A stretch of DNA of 64,000 nucleotides from Trueperaceae bacterium (GTDB lineage Bacteria; Deinococcota; Deinococci; Deinococcales; Trueperaceae), in contig CBDCDZ010000004.1 in assembly GCA_965215565.1 (NCBI GenBank), positions 2,752,001-2,816,000 of the forward strand. The letters run 5' to 3'. Numbering within the stretch: position 1 is the first letter of the stretch; each line of letters begins with the position of its first letter. This document shows, in pieces, positions 49,196 to 58,659 of this stretch. Both the position numbers and the translations under genes were made by a program. Below the pieces are notes generated by a model, which did not search any database, had not been told where the DNA came from, and was given only the letters and a program-made list of their open reading frames with translations.

Positions 49196-50863
49196 TTAAG
49201 ACGGACCCGCGATGCGCCAGAAGGTATTGGGGTTATCAATATCTGCGCTGACACTGCCCTTACCGTGGAAGTAGTCGTCGTAGTTAGCGTATCTGCTGTT
49301 CGAAACTGGACCCATCACTGCCCATATAACGGAGCTTGGTTGCACCTCTGTTGCAGTTGCCACCCACGCTTGGCGTACCTTCTGGGGCTTTTTGTCTGGG
49401 AACCAACTTATTTTCTTGCCCAACATCTTTTCAGCCAACAGACGCCCTTCGGTTTGATTGTCGAAGCTAACGTTAGCGTAGGCGAGCATCTGGTGGAGTC
49501 CCTTGAACGCGGGCCCCCAACGTTGCGCGAAATTCTTGCCGCCGGAGGTGTGTTGGAGGGGTCCGCAAGCTGCCACGACGAGCCACTCTAAGTCGCGGTT
49601 GCCCCATTTTGCGTCGTTGTAGTGCAAGAAGCCGTCGTCGTTAGTGCCTTCAAAGGTAAAGCCGTCGCCGTCTGCGTGACCCGTGTAGAAGACCATGTCC
49701 ACATCGTCTACATAGGCGTTGTCGGCACCTCCCTTACTTGGGTCTTTGAAATCGCGTTCCCAAGCGGCAGCGTCGCCAAAGTGAAACTGGACCGGGATGC
49801 CCGCGCCGCTCATCGTGTCGCGGAAGCCGCCTGCGTTGTTCTGGGAGCCGCCGAGTCCTTGCGATACGCCGATATATTCGACGCCAACATCCACACGTCC
49901 TAAGCGCTGGGTGCTGAGTGTTGGCGCTTGGCTGACCTCTCTACTATCGGCTGATTGTGCCGCTAACTCAGACTCGCCACGCGTCTCGCCTGTGCTGGCG
50001 TCGAGCATGACCGCCCTAAGTTGCGCGCCGTTTTTGAGCGTATAGTCTTCGCAGACGTAAGAGGGGGTGAGTTCTTCGCCGCTTTGGTCGGGTGAATCCA
50101 CATAGTAGGTGAGTTTCGGTGTACCTGGCAGCACGCCTTCGTTACTTGCATACGCCTCTTCACAAGCTTGCGCCGCTTCACTTGCGGACAAAACAGAGGT
50201 TTCACCGATGGGCTCGAGCCCATAAAGTCCGTAGTAAAGCTGCGTGACCTGACCTTCGGGGTTAAAAACCGCTTTGACCTTGCCGCCGGGTCCGCTCAGC
50301 GAAACGCCGCCTGCTTGCTCCAACCTCAGGTTAAAAAGCACATGCGTATCTACTTCGGTGTCAACGAGCGTTTTGCCTCCGGTGGTCTCTAAACTGAAGG
50401 TGCTTACGTCTGTATAAGGTTCTGCGTTTAAGCCCTCAACGATGGATTCGGGCAGCATCTCCGCGCTGTCTAACGCGCCGAGCACACGCTCCACTGCTTC
50501 GCCTGCATCAAAGGGTTTCACCTCTTGTAGCGCCTCAAAGTCAAACGCTTCAGTGACTACGCTGCCGCCATCTTCTGCGGACTCTTCCTGACCAACAACC
50601 TTGCTCGGCACCGCCATAAAGTTCTCTGTGTCAAGGTAGCTGATTGGCGCAAAGGGATCGGGTTCACCAATGTCTGCTTTGATGCCGAGTTCGTTCATAA
50701 GATGCTGAACTTGCTCGCTCTTGACGCCGTTCTCAGTGAGGCGAAAGACGGGGAGTTGCTCTAAGTCTTGCGTCGAGACTTCGCTCGGGGTTTGATTCAT
50801 GTCGGTGCAAGCCGCTAAGAGCAGGAAAGAGGTTGAGATTAAGCCGATATGTTTGCATTTCAT
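49196..50863 (-). CDS. Lipoprotein with C-terminal DUF6345-like (putative clan CD cysteine protease) domain
   Basis: AAGGAG RBS; lipobox LLAAC; WERDF, DMVFYTGHA and WG..DLEWLVVAAC motifs. Confidence 0.75.
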   Translation of the reverse strand: MKCKHIGLISTSFLLLAACTDMNQTPSEVSTQDLEQLPVFRLTENGVKSEQVQHLMNELGIKADIGEPDPFAPISYLDTENFMAVPSKVVGQEESAEDGGSVVTEAFDFEALQEVKPFDAGEAVERVLGALDSAEMLPESIVEGLNAEPYTDVSTFSLETTGGKTLVDTEVDTHVLFNLRLEQAGGVSLSGPGGKVKAVFNPEGQVTQLYYGLYGLEPIGETSVLSASEAAQACEEAYASNEGVLPGTPKLTYYVDSPDQSGEELTPSYVCEDYTLKNGAQLRAVMLDASTGETRGESELAAQSADSREVSQAPTLSTQRLGRVDVGVEYIGVSQGLGGSQNNAGGFRDTMSGAGIPVQFHFGDAAAWERDFKDPSKGGADNAYVDDVDMVFYTGHADGDGFTFEGTNDDGFLHYNDAKWGNRDLEWLVVAACGPLQHTSGGKNFAQRWGPAFKGLHQMLAYANVSFDNQTEGRLLAEKMLGKKISWFPDKKPQKVRQAWVATATEVQPSSVIWAVMGPVSNSRYANYDDYFHGKGSVSADIDNPNTFWRIAGPS

Positions 50864-50968
50864 GGTCGTTCTCCTTGAATATTTGCGAGAGTTTTGGACG
50901 GGTGCCCACCTCGAGGCGTAGTAGAGGTGACGCAGTGGGCACATTCGGATATAAAGAGATTTTAGAGA

Positions 50969-51982
50969 TTAGTTGACAGGGATGGGAGTGGGACGAGCGT
51001 CAACGGGAACGGGGGTGGGTCTCGCCCTAAAGAAGACGGGCTGAGGGTCTTCGCTAAGGGTGCCGTGCTTTAACGCACCCTCGATATGCTCATTCATCAC
51101 TTCGTCTAAGAGGTCAGCGTGGACGGGTAAGACGCCAGCGTGCTCGAAGAGGGAAACCTGTACCTCTTCGCTAAAGAGAGATTCGGCGAGCATGGTGCCC
51201 ATCTCTTCACCAACTTTGGTATGAACGGCAACGTTAAGCCCTTGGATAACCGGCGCAACGCCTTCGCCTTGAAGCTGGGTGAGGTTGCCGAGACCCGCTT
51301 CTACTCTGTTGAGACCTGCGTTACCAGTGAAGATAACATCGACTTCGTGGAGATGCTGGATGGCTATATAGCGGTCAATATTCTCTTTTGCTCGCTGTAA
51401 GTGATAGCCCATGCAAGACCTGGAAGCAAAGCAGATAGGACTAACTGAAATGGTTGTTCCTTGACATCCTGCGGGATCACACGTCACTGAGCCTATTCGA
51501 ATGCTCGTATCGACTTCAAAAACTTCCGTAAATACATTGCCCAACTCCTGCTGACTCAACTCGCTCACTTCCTGTAGTGCTAAGTCGTAGCTCATAAGTG
51601 TTTCCGCAAACTCAGGTGTGATGTACGCGCCTTCAAAGTCCCAACCGACGACAGGGGAGAAGTCAACGGGGTCACACCAGCGCGGGTCGCACCAAGGGAT
51701 GGGCCAAGGGCGCGGGTTCCAGGGCCAAGGGTCAATCTCCGGGGGTAGCGGCGTGTAGGAAACTAAACCACCTCCCACTTCGTTATGAACTTCCAAGAGA
51801 TTATCCGGCTCGGTCAGGATAGTCTCGAAGCCCGCTGCACCTAGTCCTTCGGCAATCTGCTCGTTATCCGTGACGATGGGAACGTCTGAAAAACCGGCGG
51901 TGCTGAGTTCCGTCTCTGTGAGGTCGGTGCCGCACGCGCTCAAGAGGGCGATGAGACAGCCAATAAAAATGGTGCGTTTCAT
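50969..51982 (-). CDS. Lipoprotein with Pro/Trp-rich segment and SBP-like C-terminal half
   Basis: AAGGAG RBS; lipobox LLSAC. Confidence 0.75.
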   Translation of the reverse strand: MKRTIFIGCLIALLSACGTDLTETELSTAGFSDVPIVTDNEQIAEGLGAAGFETILTEPDNLLEVHNEVGGGLVSYTPLPPEIDPWPWNPRPWPIPWCDPRWCDPVDFSPVVGWDFEGAYITPEFAETLMSYDLALQEVSELSQQELGNVFTEVFEVDTSIRIGSVTCDPAGCQGTTISVSPICFASRSCMGYHLQRAKENIDRYIAIQHLHEVDVIFTGNAGLNRVEAGLGNLTQLQGEGVAPVIQGLNVAVHTKVGEEMGTMLAESLFSEEVQVSLFEHAGVLPVHADLLDEVMNEHIEGALKHGTLSEDPQPVFFRARPTPVPVDARPTPIPVN

Positions 51983-52120: not shown

Positions 52121-52152
52121 ATGGTAGGCTGAGCGCGTCAACTTTTCGTCAA
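52121..52152 (-). promoter_or_regulatory. Putative SARP-activated promoter
   Basis: Minus strand reads TTGACGA-N4-TTGACGC-N8-TACCAT(-10). Confidence 0.6.
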
Positions 52153-52337: not shown

Positions 52338-54947
52338 ATGGACGTGCTTAATCTCACTCTTTTAGGAACGCCGCGCCTGACCTACAAAGGCGCAGACGTA
52401 GGGCTACAAAAAAAGAACTTGGCGCTCGTGTGTTATTTGGCGCTGCAAGGAACGTGTACCCGCGCGGACCTCACCGAACTGCTTTGGGGTGCGGGGCGCG
52501 GCGGCAGTTTGCGCACGGCGCTCTACAAGGTGCGGCAGTTGCCGGGCGCAGAAGACTGGCTCACGGACGGGGAACTCGTCAAGCTAGCCGTGCAGAGCGA
52601 TGTGGCAATGTTGCAGCGCGACAAGGACGCCCCCAATCTCTCCGAAGCGACGTTTGCCCACCTGGATAGTTACTTAGAAAATGACGCGCAAGGGCTTTTG
52701 TTCGGTTTCAAAGCGCCGACGCCCGCCTACAGCGAATGGTTAGAAGAGCAGCGCCAAGCGGTTGCGCTCTTGCTCGAGACCCTCCTCAGACGCGCTGCCC
52801 AAGAGGTATTTGAACGCGGCGAACTGGAGCGGGCAAAGCGCTACGCCGAAGCCCTCATCACCCGCGACCCCTTAGACGAGCCTGCGTATAGGCTGCTGAT
52901 GCGGCTCGAGTTGGGGCGCGGCTATCCCGAAAACACACACCGCACTTTTGGGCGTTTAGTCTCAACACTCGAAGAGGTCGGCGGCGAACCCGACCCGGAT
53001 ACACTCGCGCTGCACCGTCAACTGTTGGGCACGGGGAGCGGCGCACAGGGCGCACGCCTGCACGAAGGAGACGACGTGCCAGGGCGTGCCCCGCGGCTTA
53101 TCGGGCGCGACTCTCTGTTACAAAGTCTCGAGGCAAACCTCACCGGACACCGCTCTGAGCGCCCGGTGTTGCTGCACGGTTTAGGCGGCGTCGGTAAAAC
53201 GGCCTTAGCCGCGGAGTTGGCGTTCAGGTTCCTCCCCAAAGATGAAGTGCTCTGGCTCCAAGCCGGTCTCAGCAGCGCCGCCGAACTCCTCGGCGCAACT
53301 CGTGGGCTATTGGGACTCTCAGGCGCGGCGCAACCCAGTGCGCTAACCCAAGCACTCGGGCGCGTTTCCCTCGTCATTGTTGACGACGTTTGGAACGAGG
53401 GCGCGGTGGCAGCGTTGCGTCACCATCTACCCGAGACTTGTCCGCTGGTCGTAACCTCGAGGCAGCGCATGAGCGGCTTTAAGCGACTCGACGTGAGGCG
53501 GCTCGTGAGAGAGGATGCGCGGCAACTTTTGCGGCTCGAGGCGGGCACTGACCTCTGTAACGCGCAGCTAGAGCCCATCTGTGACCTCTTGGGCGACCAT
53601 CCCTTCGCCCTGCGTGTGGCAGGTGCGAAGCTCAAGCACGACGGGCTCACGCCGCTGCAACTCCTCACGCAGCTCGCCAGCGCGCCCCACACGCTCAGAG
53701 TCCAGGGAAGCAGGGGCGACGCGAACAGCGTCAGCGCCCTCTTGCAAACGAGCTTAGATACCCTCAGTGACGATGCCTATGACGCCTTTTTAGCGGTGGG
53801 CGCACTCGCGTCTAGCACGGTGAGTGCGCCGCTCCTAGCCCGCGCCTTACGCCGCGACGAAGAGGTTGCCGAAGCCGCGCTTATCGAACTGCAAACCCGC
53901 GCCTTAGCCACCCGCACTGCTAGCCCCGGCAGTGACCTCGTGCGCTACACGCTCCACGACCTCTCACACAGCTTTGCGCGGCAAAAAACCACCTTACGCC
54001 CGCAGAGCGTTCTTCGTGCCTGTAGCGATTTGGTACACGCGCATCCTAAAGACTTCGACATTTTAGACGCTGAAATCACCAACGTCATCGGGGCGCTCAG
54101 CCCCTTGCAAGACGCGCAAGAGGTGAAAGGGCAACGTTCGGTGCTTTCGGTCATGGCGAAACTCGTCATCGGTGACGCCTACTTTGCAGCGAGAGGTCAC
54201 ACGCCGCGTTCCTTGAAGCTTTTGGAGGTGGCAGCGAAGTGGGCGGAGGCGCTTGAAGAACTCGTGTGGGCGCATCATTTTGTGACGAAGCTCGGGGACG
54301 CTTACCGCGTGCAATATCACCAGTTTGAAAGGGCGCTCACCTCTTATCAAACGGGGGCGAAGTTGGCGCAGCTAACTGGGGATAAGGCGAGAGAGGCCAT
54401 ATTGACGAGTCTCTGCGGTATTGCTCAGCATCATTTGGCGCGTTCACCTAATGAGACATTTGAGCGAGCCTATCAACTTGCTCGAGAGGCAGATAACCTT
54501 ACGGCTATTGGTCAAGTGCTACAGCATCGCGGTTTTGTTGCTGGGTTCTACGATAACTGGAAGCTAGTGGAAAGCTTGAACATAGAAGCGGGCAGAGTTG
54601 CACGCTCGTTCTCAAATACAACGGATGAAGAACGCACCCGTGCTGACGACCTTCTTTACTTTTCACTTCTCAACTTGGGCGAAGCCAAACGTAAGCTTGG
54701 AAATTTTGAAGAAGCTGTAACCATCCGAAAAGAGGCTTTGGACATTGCAGTTACGCACAAGAATCAAATGTGGCAAGCCTACGCATTGCACGAACTTGGT
54801 GAGATGTACCTCGAGGTGCCTGAGTACGAGACAGCCGAGGGGTACTTGCGAAAGGCTCTCAAGCTTTACAAAACTAATCACGCCGCCGCCGAAGTTACAG
54901 AGGTGCAACAGCTTATTGACAAAAATTCACGCCGAGTTGACGCCTAG
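52338..54947 (+). CDS. AfsR-like STAND regulator: SARP wHTH, BTAD, NB-ARC, TPR
   Basis: LLG.P.L, LALVCYLAL, DPLDE.AYR.LM, GLGGVGKT, VDDVW, VTSR, HPFAL, LHDL and C-terminal TPRs. Confidence 0.92.
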   Translation: MDVLNLTLLGTPRLTYKGADVGLQKKNLALVCYLALQGTCTRADLTELLWGAGRGGSLRTALYKVRQLPGAEDWLTDGELVKLAVQSDVAMLQRDKDAPNLSEATFAHLDSYLENDAQGLLFGFKAPTPAYSEWLEEQRQAVALLLETLLRRAAQEVFERGELERAKRYAEALITRDPLDEPAYRLLMRLELGRGYPENTHRTFGRLVSTLEEVGGEPDPDTLALHRQLLGTGSGAQGARLHEGDDVPGRAPRLIGRDSLLQSLEANLTGHRSERPVLLHGLGGVGKTALAAELAFRFLPKDEVLWLQAGLSSAAELLGATRGLLGLSGAAQPSALTQALGRVSLVIVDDVWNEGAVAALRHHLPETCPLVVTSRQRMSGFKRLDVRRLVREDARQLLRLEAGTDLCNAQLEPICDLLGDHPFALRVAGAKLKHDGLTPLQLLTQLASAPHTLRVQGSRGDANSVSALLQTSLDTLSDDAYDAFLAVGALASSTVSAPLLARALRRDEEVAEAALIELQTRALATRTASPGSDLVRYTLHDLSHSFARQKTTLRPQSVLRACSDLVHAHPKDFDILDAEITNVIGALSPLQDAQEVKGQRSVLSVMAKLVIGDAYFAARGHTPRSLKLLEVAAKWAEALEELVWAHHFVTKLGDAYRVQYHQFERALTSYQTGAKLAQLTGDKAREAILTSLCGIAQHHLARSPNETFERAYQLAREADNLTAIGQVLQHRGFVAGFYDNWKLVESLNIEAGRVARSFSNTTDEERTRADDLLYFSLLNLGEAKRKLGNFEEAVTIRKEALDIAVTHKNQMWQAYALHELGEMYLEVPEYETAEGYLRKALKLYKTNHAAAEVTEVQQLIDKNSRRVDA

Positions 54948-54976: not shown

Positions 54977-56377
54977 ATGAAATACATTGCAAGCAGCCTT
55001 CTTTTGACCCTCTTTTTAAGTGCATGTTCGATTAGCGATCCTTCCAACCTCGAGCAGCAGGCTTTCGAAACTATCGACCCAAGCAATCTCATCGGTTTAA
55101 GCGGCGAAGAATTCAGACTCATAAACGAAGATACGGGCAACTGTTCGATTGATGAGATCAAAATACCGGGAGAAGGATTGCGCGCTATGGGTGGTAGTGG
55201 CGGTCTCTTCACCCAACCCTTCTCTATCAGCACCGTACCCGATGACATCAACATCATCAGCCAAGAGGTTCTCAACTTAGCGTCACCCCACTTCGACCAG
55301 CCCACCGCGCTTCTTGTTGTAGATGACTTTGATGGGCAAGGGCTTAATCAACCTGGCGTTTACTTTCCCGATATTAGAGGTCAAGGTCCCCACGGGTCAC
55401 TTGTTTACAACCATACTTTGGCACTTCTCGCAAAAATCGACCAAAGCATGGGAAAAAATCCAAAGTTGAAGCTAAGCCCGGCTGTAAAGATGGACAGCTT
55501 TGAGATACACAAGCCTGCGCGTATCGATCTATTTAATGAGCCTCCTTTCAACTTCGAGCCGTTCTCAGGGCATGTTACGCAGTTTCCCAACCTCAACCTT
55601 ACCGTTATTGCTATTGATACCGAAGATTTCGATACGAGCATCATCGCCGGCCGCATCGCCGCGACGATTCAACGTGCGGCGGACCATTGGAATATCTCGC
55701 GCTTCGCTGCCAATATGAGCTTTGGACTGGTGCCGTGCAGCGTACTCGAGGATTTCACGGCAGTGAAGCAAATGTATCCAACGTTTGAATCTTACCGAGA
55801 TGCGCTTCTCGCTAAGAATAAGCTCAGCGTGACTCAGTTTCATAAAGAACTCACAGAAATCCTCACGACACCTGTAGGTAACGACCCGCTGCAACTCCTC
55901 GCGCAGTTCAATCCAGAAGCGATCTCTGGAAATGTTGACGCCGTGGCATACCTCGCCTCAGCGGGCAACTACGGTATGAACTACTCGCTCTTTCCCGCCC
56001 ACTGGCCCGAATTTGCGAGCGTGAGCGCCTCAGACCTGAGCGTGGACCCAAGCAGACCGCTCGAGATTTCGCATAAAGACGCCGCGTATTCAAATTCGGG
56101 TGAAATCCTCTTGCCGGGTGGCTACTACCAGCTTAACCTCTACTACCCTGGTGGCGGCTGGCAGCCCATCCCTGACATTGCTTTCGCAGGCACCTCATTC
56201 GCTGCACCTGTTTTGAGCGTCTTCACCGCGTTGGACTTTACGAGCAGAGCGCCGCAGTGCCCCGTTACACACGAGCACAGCACGTCGCTCGCACACAACT
56301 ATAGGTACGGTTTAGGACAAGATGAGATGTTGGAGAACGTCATCAACGGGTCGTGCGCTCGTCACTATCGTCCCTGA
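54977..56377 (+). CDS. S8 subtilisin-like serine protease, lipoprotein
   Basis: GGAGG RBS; lipobox FLSAC; VVDD, HGSLV, SAGN and GTSFAAP motifs. Confidence 0.85.
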   Translation: MKYIASSLLLTLFLSACSISDPSNLEQQAFETIDPSNLIGLSGEEFRLINEDTGNCSIDEIKIPGEGLRAMGGSGGLFTQPFSISTVPDDINIISQEVLNLASPHFDQPTALLVVDDFDGQGLNQPGVYFPDIRGQGPHGSLVYNHTLALLAKIDQSMGKNPKLKLSPAVKMDSFEIHKPARIDLFNEPPFNFEPFSGHVTQFPNLNLTVIAIDTEDFDTSIIAGRIAATIQRAADHWNISRFAANMSFGLVPCSVLEDFTAVKQMYPTFESYRDALLAKNKLSVTQFHKELTEILTTPVGNDPLQLLAQFNPEAISGNVDAVAYLASAGNYGMNYSLFPAHWPEFASVSASDLSVDPSRPLEISHKDAAYSNSGEILLPGGYYQLNLYYPGGGWQPIPDIAFAGTSFAAPVLSVFTALDFTSRAPQCPVTHEHSTSLAHNYRYGLGQDEMLENVINGSCARHYRP

Positions 56378-56487
56378 GAGGTGAAGCGGGTCAGCATAAG
56401 ATTTGTTCCGATAGACTGACCTGCTCATTCACTTTCTCGTACGTTCTTCTACAATTGAAAGCAATATCAATGCGGAAGGAGGAAACC

Positions 56488-56586
56488 ATGAAGCAGAAAC
56501 TTCGTCACATCTTTGTGCTGGCGCTCATCACCTTACCGTTCTGGAGTAGCGTAGCATTTGCTGGATTGCGCGTTAGGGGCGGCTAA
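56488..56586 (+). CDS. 32-aa secreted peptide precursor (signal peptide + GLRVRGG)
   Basis: AAGGAGG RBS; MKQKLRHIFVLALITLPFWSSVAFA-GLRVRGG; downstream terminator. Confidence 0.8.
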   Translation: MKQKLRHIFVLALITLPFWSSVAFAGLRVRGG

Positions 56587-56610
56587 TCTCCAAAACTTTC
56601 TATGCCTACG

Positions 56611-56640
56611 AAGAGAGGTGAAGCTTTCACCTCTCTTTTT
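56611..56640 (+). terminator. Rho-independent terminator
   Basis: aagagaggtgaa-gct-ttcacctctctt plus T-run. Confidence 0.9.
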
Positions 56641-56727
56641 CTTTTTTGTGTTGAGCAAACTGTTTTTATACACCAAACAACCTAGCCTCACGGGACAGCT
56701 TCTGCGGGTAAATTGGGGAAGCAGCGG

Positions 56728-58659
<1,932 letters not shown>

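Follow-up and report, generated by a model that had tools for sequence, protein, structure and literature searches.

Why would a bacterium carry a gene whose predicted product, once exported, amounts to only seven residues? A micro-gene of this kind was found in the window, a stretch of 64,000 nucleotides of Trueperaceae DNA, directly behind the gene of a subtilase-like lipoprotein that itself follows the gene of a large regulator (Table 1). As detailed below, the cassette points to an undescribed peptide-signalling circuit in Deinococcota. A search of the open-access literature, comprising main texts and few subscription journals, found no paper describing it.

Table 1 Features of the cassette (positions refer to the 64,000-nucleotide window)
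Feature	Position	Strand	Remarks
DUF6345 lipoprotein gene	49196..50944	-	in L044 likewise next to the cassette; in L054 next to a related regulator
Divergent lipoprotein gene	50969..51982	-	weak operator copy upstream (52131-52152, score 11.4, not significant alone)
Large SARP-type STAND regulator	52338..54947	+	869 aa; BTAD, NB-ARC-like ATPase, C-terminal TPR
afs-box-like 22-bp operator	54926..54947	+	two 11-bp direct repeats; just before the subtilase gene
S8 subtilase-like lipoprotein	54977..56377	+	466 aa; Asp116, His139, Asn331, Ser407; model matches subtilisins
Heptamer slot in the subtilase	55175..55195	+	residues 67-73; 5/7 identical to the micro-gene tail; low-confidence model loop
Hairpin behind the subtilase stop	56376..56438	+	without U run; its first 12 bp recur exactly at 56613-56624
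Sigma-70-like promoter candidate	56428..56455	+	at chance level; best operator-box score here 5.2
Ribosome-binding site of the micro-gene	56476..56482	+	five bases 5' of the ATG; read from the sequence
Micro-gene ORF	56488..56586	+	32 codons; leader of 25 residues (Sec/SPase I type), then a mature tail of 7
Tail codons of the micro-gene	56563-56583	+	7 residues
Intrinsic terminator behind the micro-gene	56610..56648	+	13-pair stem plus T run

The elements listed in a preliminary description of the locus were all recognizable: a strong ribosome-binding site, a leader (assigned by eye) whose n-region is basic and whose h-region is hydrophobic, with an Ala-X-Ala site (residues 23-25), and a product of seven residues. 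The clean terminator that it reported also stood up to folding (stem and T run at 56610-56638; z = -4.0, none of 200 shuffles folding equally well). The proposed promoter exists as a sequence, but it is the one such site found in 3 kb, against 1.1 expected by chance, and is therefore no evidence taken alone. A hairpin separates the subtilase stop from this promoter-like site (z = -3.4, 2 of 200 shuffles as good); since it has no U run, read-through from the protease gene is possible. The gene caller placed the start six codons further 5' (P0154, 38 residues), at an ATG without ribosome-binding site. A 12-bp direct repeat stands on both sides of the micro-gene (at 56376 and 56613, 237 bp apart), as if a 237-bp unit had been inserted into the terminator of the protease gene.

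That repeat, suggestive of insertion, and the patchy distribution of the micro-gene, present in only 4 of 48 regulator-subtilase pairs, could indicate a non-functional remnant, either of a truncated secreted protein or of a deleted second protease copy. We consider this highly improbable. It is largely refuted already by P0155, a homolog of the same length (32 residues) that is identical to the window's peptide at 24 of 25 leader positions and at 3 of 7 tail positions, in line with the conserved length and variable tail that the preliminary description proposed to look for in relatives. The long secreted orthologs that would have spoken for a nonsense truncation did not appear among 5863 candidates of 87-2000 residues searched with the family profile (none at E <= 1, which is weak evidence). 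Because P0155 keeps the length with a swapped tail and no longer homolog scored, the micro-gene is, judging by its sequence, a real gene and not a truncated one, as first claimed. In addition, its leader is of the SPase I type, against the lipobox of the protease, and a contig of another population (run X3) spans 56099-56750 with 35 substitutions and no gap.

A changed tail on a kept leader, as in P0155, is the pattern expected of pherotypes. The remaining homologs are longer (43-49 residues) and contain the heptamer in two copies. A profile of four family members matched 5 proteins among 20 candidates of 17-86 residues; three were seeds or the window's own ORF, the others being P0155 and P0153, a 43-residue form with two heptamer copies. 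The functional product could also be the uncleaved 32-residue membrane peptide or an RNA, the tail being incidental: cleavage is predicted by eye only, and strong hairpins stand on both sides of the gene. This is quite improbable since all four family members keep the heptamer glycines and the Ala-X-Ala-Gly junction unchanged although their leaders are very dissimilar, and since the two-copy forms duplicate the heptamer and keep a single leader.

In its own genome, tblastn with the micro-gene peptide found no paralog. A degenerate DNA pattern produced as many matches in 128 genomes as in the control; among 30 of these loci and 2 own-genome matches that we inspected, the only real one was the known gene of L056. 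Likewise, a profile of the peptide family recovered the 4 seeds and no further convincing member from 128 family and 364 phylum genomes. Weak profile matches (L194, L207, L208, L216, L220, L221, L224 and L226) were not members upon inspection, and an ORF close to the L048 regulator was discarded as a candidate, since it had neither a ribosome-binding site nor a match to the protease slot described below. Pfam contains no family for the peptide, and the ESM Atlas at 0.9 returned nothing for that of L044.

The neighbouring protein has the Asp-His-Ser triad and oxyanion Asn of S8 subtilases, all four residues being invariant across the family alignment (18 rows), and a model with subtilisin fold, for which the best Foldseek matches were subtilisins (E 6e-7); its Pfam S8 score was 15.9, below the 21.8 cut-off. 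The subtilase family has matches in 44 of 301 genomes of the order. Among the 150 best relatives, 111 possess the heptamer slot, either as one copy (54) or as two to five copies in tandem (57). Position 1 is Gly in 89 of the 111, position 6 is Gly by construction of the search pattern, and the middle positions are variable. The slot is consequently hypervariable between fixed glycines and often tandemly repeated. In runs X2 and X3, two substitutions turn slot position 5 into the residue found there in the window's tail (among the 40 listed of 815 differences). The subtilases of the more distant, Chloroflexota-type pairs L106, L109 and L110 have no slot at all. Where the slot would lie, the large distant subtilases in L114, L116, L119, L120 and L122 have at least four heptamers in tandem; a regulator was not found in their vicinity. 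In L059 (10564-13059), three near-identical lipoprotein ORFs of 52-57 residues follow the subtilase gene, two of them ending in five residues that resemble a pentamer repeated twice in their own protease.

Micro-genes matching the slot occur in four cassettes (the window, L044, L046 and L056), at four different positions and orientations around the regulator-subtilase pair. In the three relatives the peptide has two heptamers joined by a linker, and the gene lies between regulator and protease on the opposite strand (L044), upstream of the regulator (L046) or between regulator and protease on the same strand (L056). The best identity of each tail to its own slot is, in the same order, 5, 5, 5 and 4 of 7. 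Compared by eye with all four slots, the peptides gave the rows 5-3-2-2, 5-5-4-2, 4-3-5-2 and 3-3-3-4, so that within these cassettes the own protease is the best or joint best match of every tail. The own pairing is also the single best of the 24 possible ones (19 matches, the next having 17), a count made by eye on four cassettes that are kin, two of them from one genus. Nevertheless, two of the seven residues of the window's tail deviate from the own slot, and the tail is closer to the slots of the close relatives L042 and L092 (6/7), which speaks against a strict lock-and-key relation. The count of micro-genes is again four among the 35 pairs with at least 3.3 kb of upstream and 1 kb of downstream DNA. 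Given their presence in 4 of 48 pairs and the lack of additions from the searches of 128 and 364 genomes, the micro-gene is optional and the protease slot is the rule.

Since the only sequence match of the tail is the slot, the peptide might act outside the cytoplasm on the subtilase itself. By mimicking the internal heptamer and taking up its site, it would inhibit competitively, serve as a decoy substrate or activate the pro-enzyme in trans, while the regulator controls the protease and senses something else. Both products are predicted to be exported, and the slot is located where the junctions of subtilisin pro-regions lie. This role is the main rival of the reading favoured below; because the match points to the protease, we hold it to be unlikely rather than negligible. 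One to five tandem, lineage-variable copies exceed what an autoprocessing junction needs, and unstructured heptapeptides are usually poor subtilisin inhibitors. Moreover, two unrelated S8 families, the second of which is presented further below, both link a repeat-bearing protease with a cytoplasmic TPR sensor. Like the autoprocessing junction of subtilisin pro-peptides, the slot immediately precedes the catalytic domain and falls in a flexible part of a protein modelled with a subtilisin fold. It differs in that its unit is short, hypervariable and tandemly repeated and is found a second time in a secreted gene of its own, whereas known subtilisin pro-domains are folded inhibitors.

The regulator encoded upstream has the architecture of large SARPs of the AfsR type, namely a SARP/BTAD region, a NOD with Walker motifs and HD latch, and TPR. 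Pfam detected BTAD and TPR_12 above the cut-off and NB-ARC and AAA_16 just below it, with no match for the N-terminal winged helix; Walker A, Walker B and HD are visible in the translation and alignment. Its matches occur in 26 of 128 family genomes, and it is encoded within 3.5 kb of 48 of the 66 distinct subtilase genes examined. The regulator genes of L043 (G001:C1:1730605-1733232) and L052 each have one in-frame stop; their neighbours look intact.

A motif for its putative operator was trained on 53 upstream regions of subtilase genes (information 5.95, versus 3.6 for two shuffles). Scores of at least 17 were reached in 20 of these 53 regions, which constitute the training set. The window's operator has the best score in its genome, though it also belongs to that set; a copy at the end of the paralogous regulator gene, outside the set, scored 19.0. 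Genome-wide, scores of at least 18 were barely above chance (4 real sites versus 3 shuffled). As in AfsR-type target promoters, the site before the subtilase gene and those of homologous loci consist of two 11-bp direct repeats over a candidate -35 region. Relatives have the box in front of further secreted lipoprotein genes as well. In the window, the divergent lipoprotein gene is a probable target and the DUF6345 lipoprotein gene a possible one. No operator box was found upstream of the four micro-genes (scores 5.2, 6.1, 2.4 and -1.1).

Around this regulator we made several further observations. In L056, nine high-scoring operator matches (seven separate sites, some with three repeats) lie within 15 kb, mostly before secreted lipoprotein genes, and form a predicted local regulon. 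At G000:C4:1633625-1633850, the 3' end of the paralogous regulator gene has an operator that would drive a 56-residue ORF that lacks a leader and contains a short acidic repeat, much as in the case of AfsS. The divergent lipoprotein of the window gave no Pfam match; it carries short proline-rich repeats towards either end, and a paralog of it adjoins the paralogous regulator. Near a regulator-subtilase pair, L103 (1225-1670) contains two tandem leader-bearing ORFs of 48-57 residues with a common C-terminal motif that does not match the slot.

The presence of several secreted lipoproteins under the same operator, and of many other leader-plus-tail micro-genes beside other regulators in the genome, might suggest that the peptide, as signal or effector, is directed elsewhere: at a receptor in the membrane or periplasm, at a lipoprotein encoded nearby or, the peptide being cationic, at competing cells. 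This appears improbable. No conserved membrane kinase was seen at the examined loci (weak evidence, as the search covered the window's neighbours), the tails of some relatives are not cationic, and an antimicrobial role would leave the match with the own protease unexplained.

We favour, with moderate confidence, the reading that the heptapeptide serves as a signal. Micro-gene and protease would both release it, and after import the TPR region of the regulator would read it. Sec export and signal peptidase I would free the 7-mer directly; the two-copy peptides of the relatives would need one further cut before a Gly, probably made by the subtilase, which would in turn shed its own loop heptamer(s) during self-processing. 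The peptide may then re-enter the cell through an Opp/Dpp-type transporter (the genome encodes six family-5 solute-binding proteins) and lift the autoinhibition of the STAND protein by binding to its TPR sensor. The SARP module would subsequently bind the 22-bp operator and, if its effect is positive, switch on the subtilase and the neighbouring secreted lipoproteins. The loop would be positive, the protease serving at once as output and as source of the signal, with the optional micro-gene, devoid of an operator of its own, supplying signal independently of the protease. Against this signalling role counts the fact that the tail matches the protease and not the regulator, a match that a protease-directed role explains equally well. 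A complex prediction for L044, made with the TPR region and propeptide residues 18-47, scored 0.02, which speaks neither for nor against binding.

The closest known counterpart of the regulator belongs to the AfsR-AfsS system of Streptomyces. In two publications, AfsR is a SARP of the large type containing NOD and TPR (PMC10832544, PMC10936776) that is held inhibited by these two regions and whose afs box, 22 bp made up of two 11-bp direct repeats, is situated in the promoter of the next gene downstream (PMC10936776); AfsR binds AfsS through the AfsS repeats with a Kd of 4.7 uM (PMC10832544). As far as these texts describe the system, the cassette resembles it in regulator architecture, in the box before the downstream gene, and in a small adjacent gene whose function probably resides in a short motif, variable and at times repeated. 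By the same texts, it differs in that the box of the window precedes the subtilase gene, whereas the AfsS gene is itself directly downstream and box-driven, and in that the micro-gene has an export leader, AfsS not being described there as secreted. The motif is shared with a protease, and the phylum is Deinococcota. Two to five internal repeats typify AfsS, against one heptamer in the window and two in three relatives and P0153. We know of no export leader in AfsS. Identity with AfsS was rejected: the micro-gene peptide is predicted to be exported, is single-copy in the window and is not under the box.

The cassette also shares traits with the RRNPP systems of Bacillota (Rap-Phr, PlcR-PapR, NprR-NprX, arbitrium). 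According to PMC10075063, these combine a Sec-exported propeptide of 21-50 residues, a C-terminal product of 5-10 residues, internal duplication, a variable tail on a conserved leader and a cytoplasmic TPR partner. The same source delimits propeptides as 10-100 residues with a Sec signal, which accommodates the 32-residue peptide and its leader assigned by eye. However, it gives 250-500 residues for the TPR receptor, where the window has an 869-residue STAND ATPase, and an adjacency of -60 to 400 bp, where the window has 1540 bp with the subtilase gene in between (PMC10075063). Receptor and propeptide genes are adjacent in L044, L046 and L056. The putative signal motif of the window is, in addition, embedded in a protease. 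Membership in RRNPP was rejected because of receptor size and adjacency.

A parallel design was found in a second protease family of the genome, and it recurs across the order. A census of leader-plus-tail micro-genes in the genome found one at C4:1216112-1216240, beside a classical S8 protease; its last eight residues are the unit repeated four times 5' of the catalytic domain of that protease, which is followed by a TPR-HD protein. This cassette (L233, G000:C4:1212000-1219000) thus comprises a TPR-HD protein, a classical S8 protease and a divergent micro-gene of 42 residues. In a set of 41 loci, this one and 40 others picked mostly from the top of the match list, tandem units of 7-8 residues precede the catalytic domain, and a TPR/HD-like neighbour is present in 37. 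At five of the 41, three of them from one genus, a signal-peptide micro-gene contains an exact word of the repeat of its own protease (8, 6, 8, 8 and 5 residues), a length reached in 0, 1, 1, 0 and 0 of the other 40 loci; in the remaining 36, the shared word has at most 4 residues. As the output is SARP in one family and HD-GYP-like in the other, TPR is the constant partner. Comparison of the sequences indicates that the two unrelated proteases have in common a Gly-initial embedded oligopeptide repeat, an optional gene that encodes the oligopeptide in free form, and a TPR protein of the cytoplasm.

We tentatively propose, with some doubt, that this reflects a general Deinococcota design, in which secreted subtilases carry their own pheromone as tandem repeats, accompanied by optional micro-genes for the same oligopeptide, and in which it is read by cytoplasmic TPR sensors whose outputs can be exchanged, being an NLR-like SARP activator in one family and an HD-GYP-type enzyme in the other. 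If so, the micro-gene would be its minimal form, one leader and one ligand, and the tandem oligopeptide repeats 5' of the catalytic domain in two unrelated Deinococcota subtilase families would be explained. Re-imported peptide signalling, according to PMC10075063 known mainly from Bacillota, would extend to a diderm phylum. A preprint describes the signal that naturally switches on AfsR-type NLR-like activators as still unidentified (bioRxiv 10.64898/2026.09.02.748808). The cassette predicts a specific 7-residue ligand for one such activator, with natural variants for specificity, and would, if the reading is right, name the natural ligand of the TPR sensor of an AfsR-type NLR-like regulator.

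Other micro-genes of the genome show comparable arrangements. At G000:C4:982404, 1236684, 3312936 and 3831278, leader-plus-tail micro-genes of 41-43 residues, with tails alike near the C-terminus, each lie directly behind an HD_5 (HD-GYP-like) paralog of 305-336 residues, together forming a candidate further family of peptide and sensor. Micro-genes of 38-39 residues with the same leader and different tails occur in two genomes of the genus (G000:C4:1578082-1578198 and L216), convergent with the gene of a large protein without Pfam match. Finally, a 59-residue leader-bearing ORF (G000:C4:1422816-1422995) is convergent with the gene of a 972-residue NB-ARC/TPR protein.
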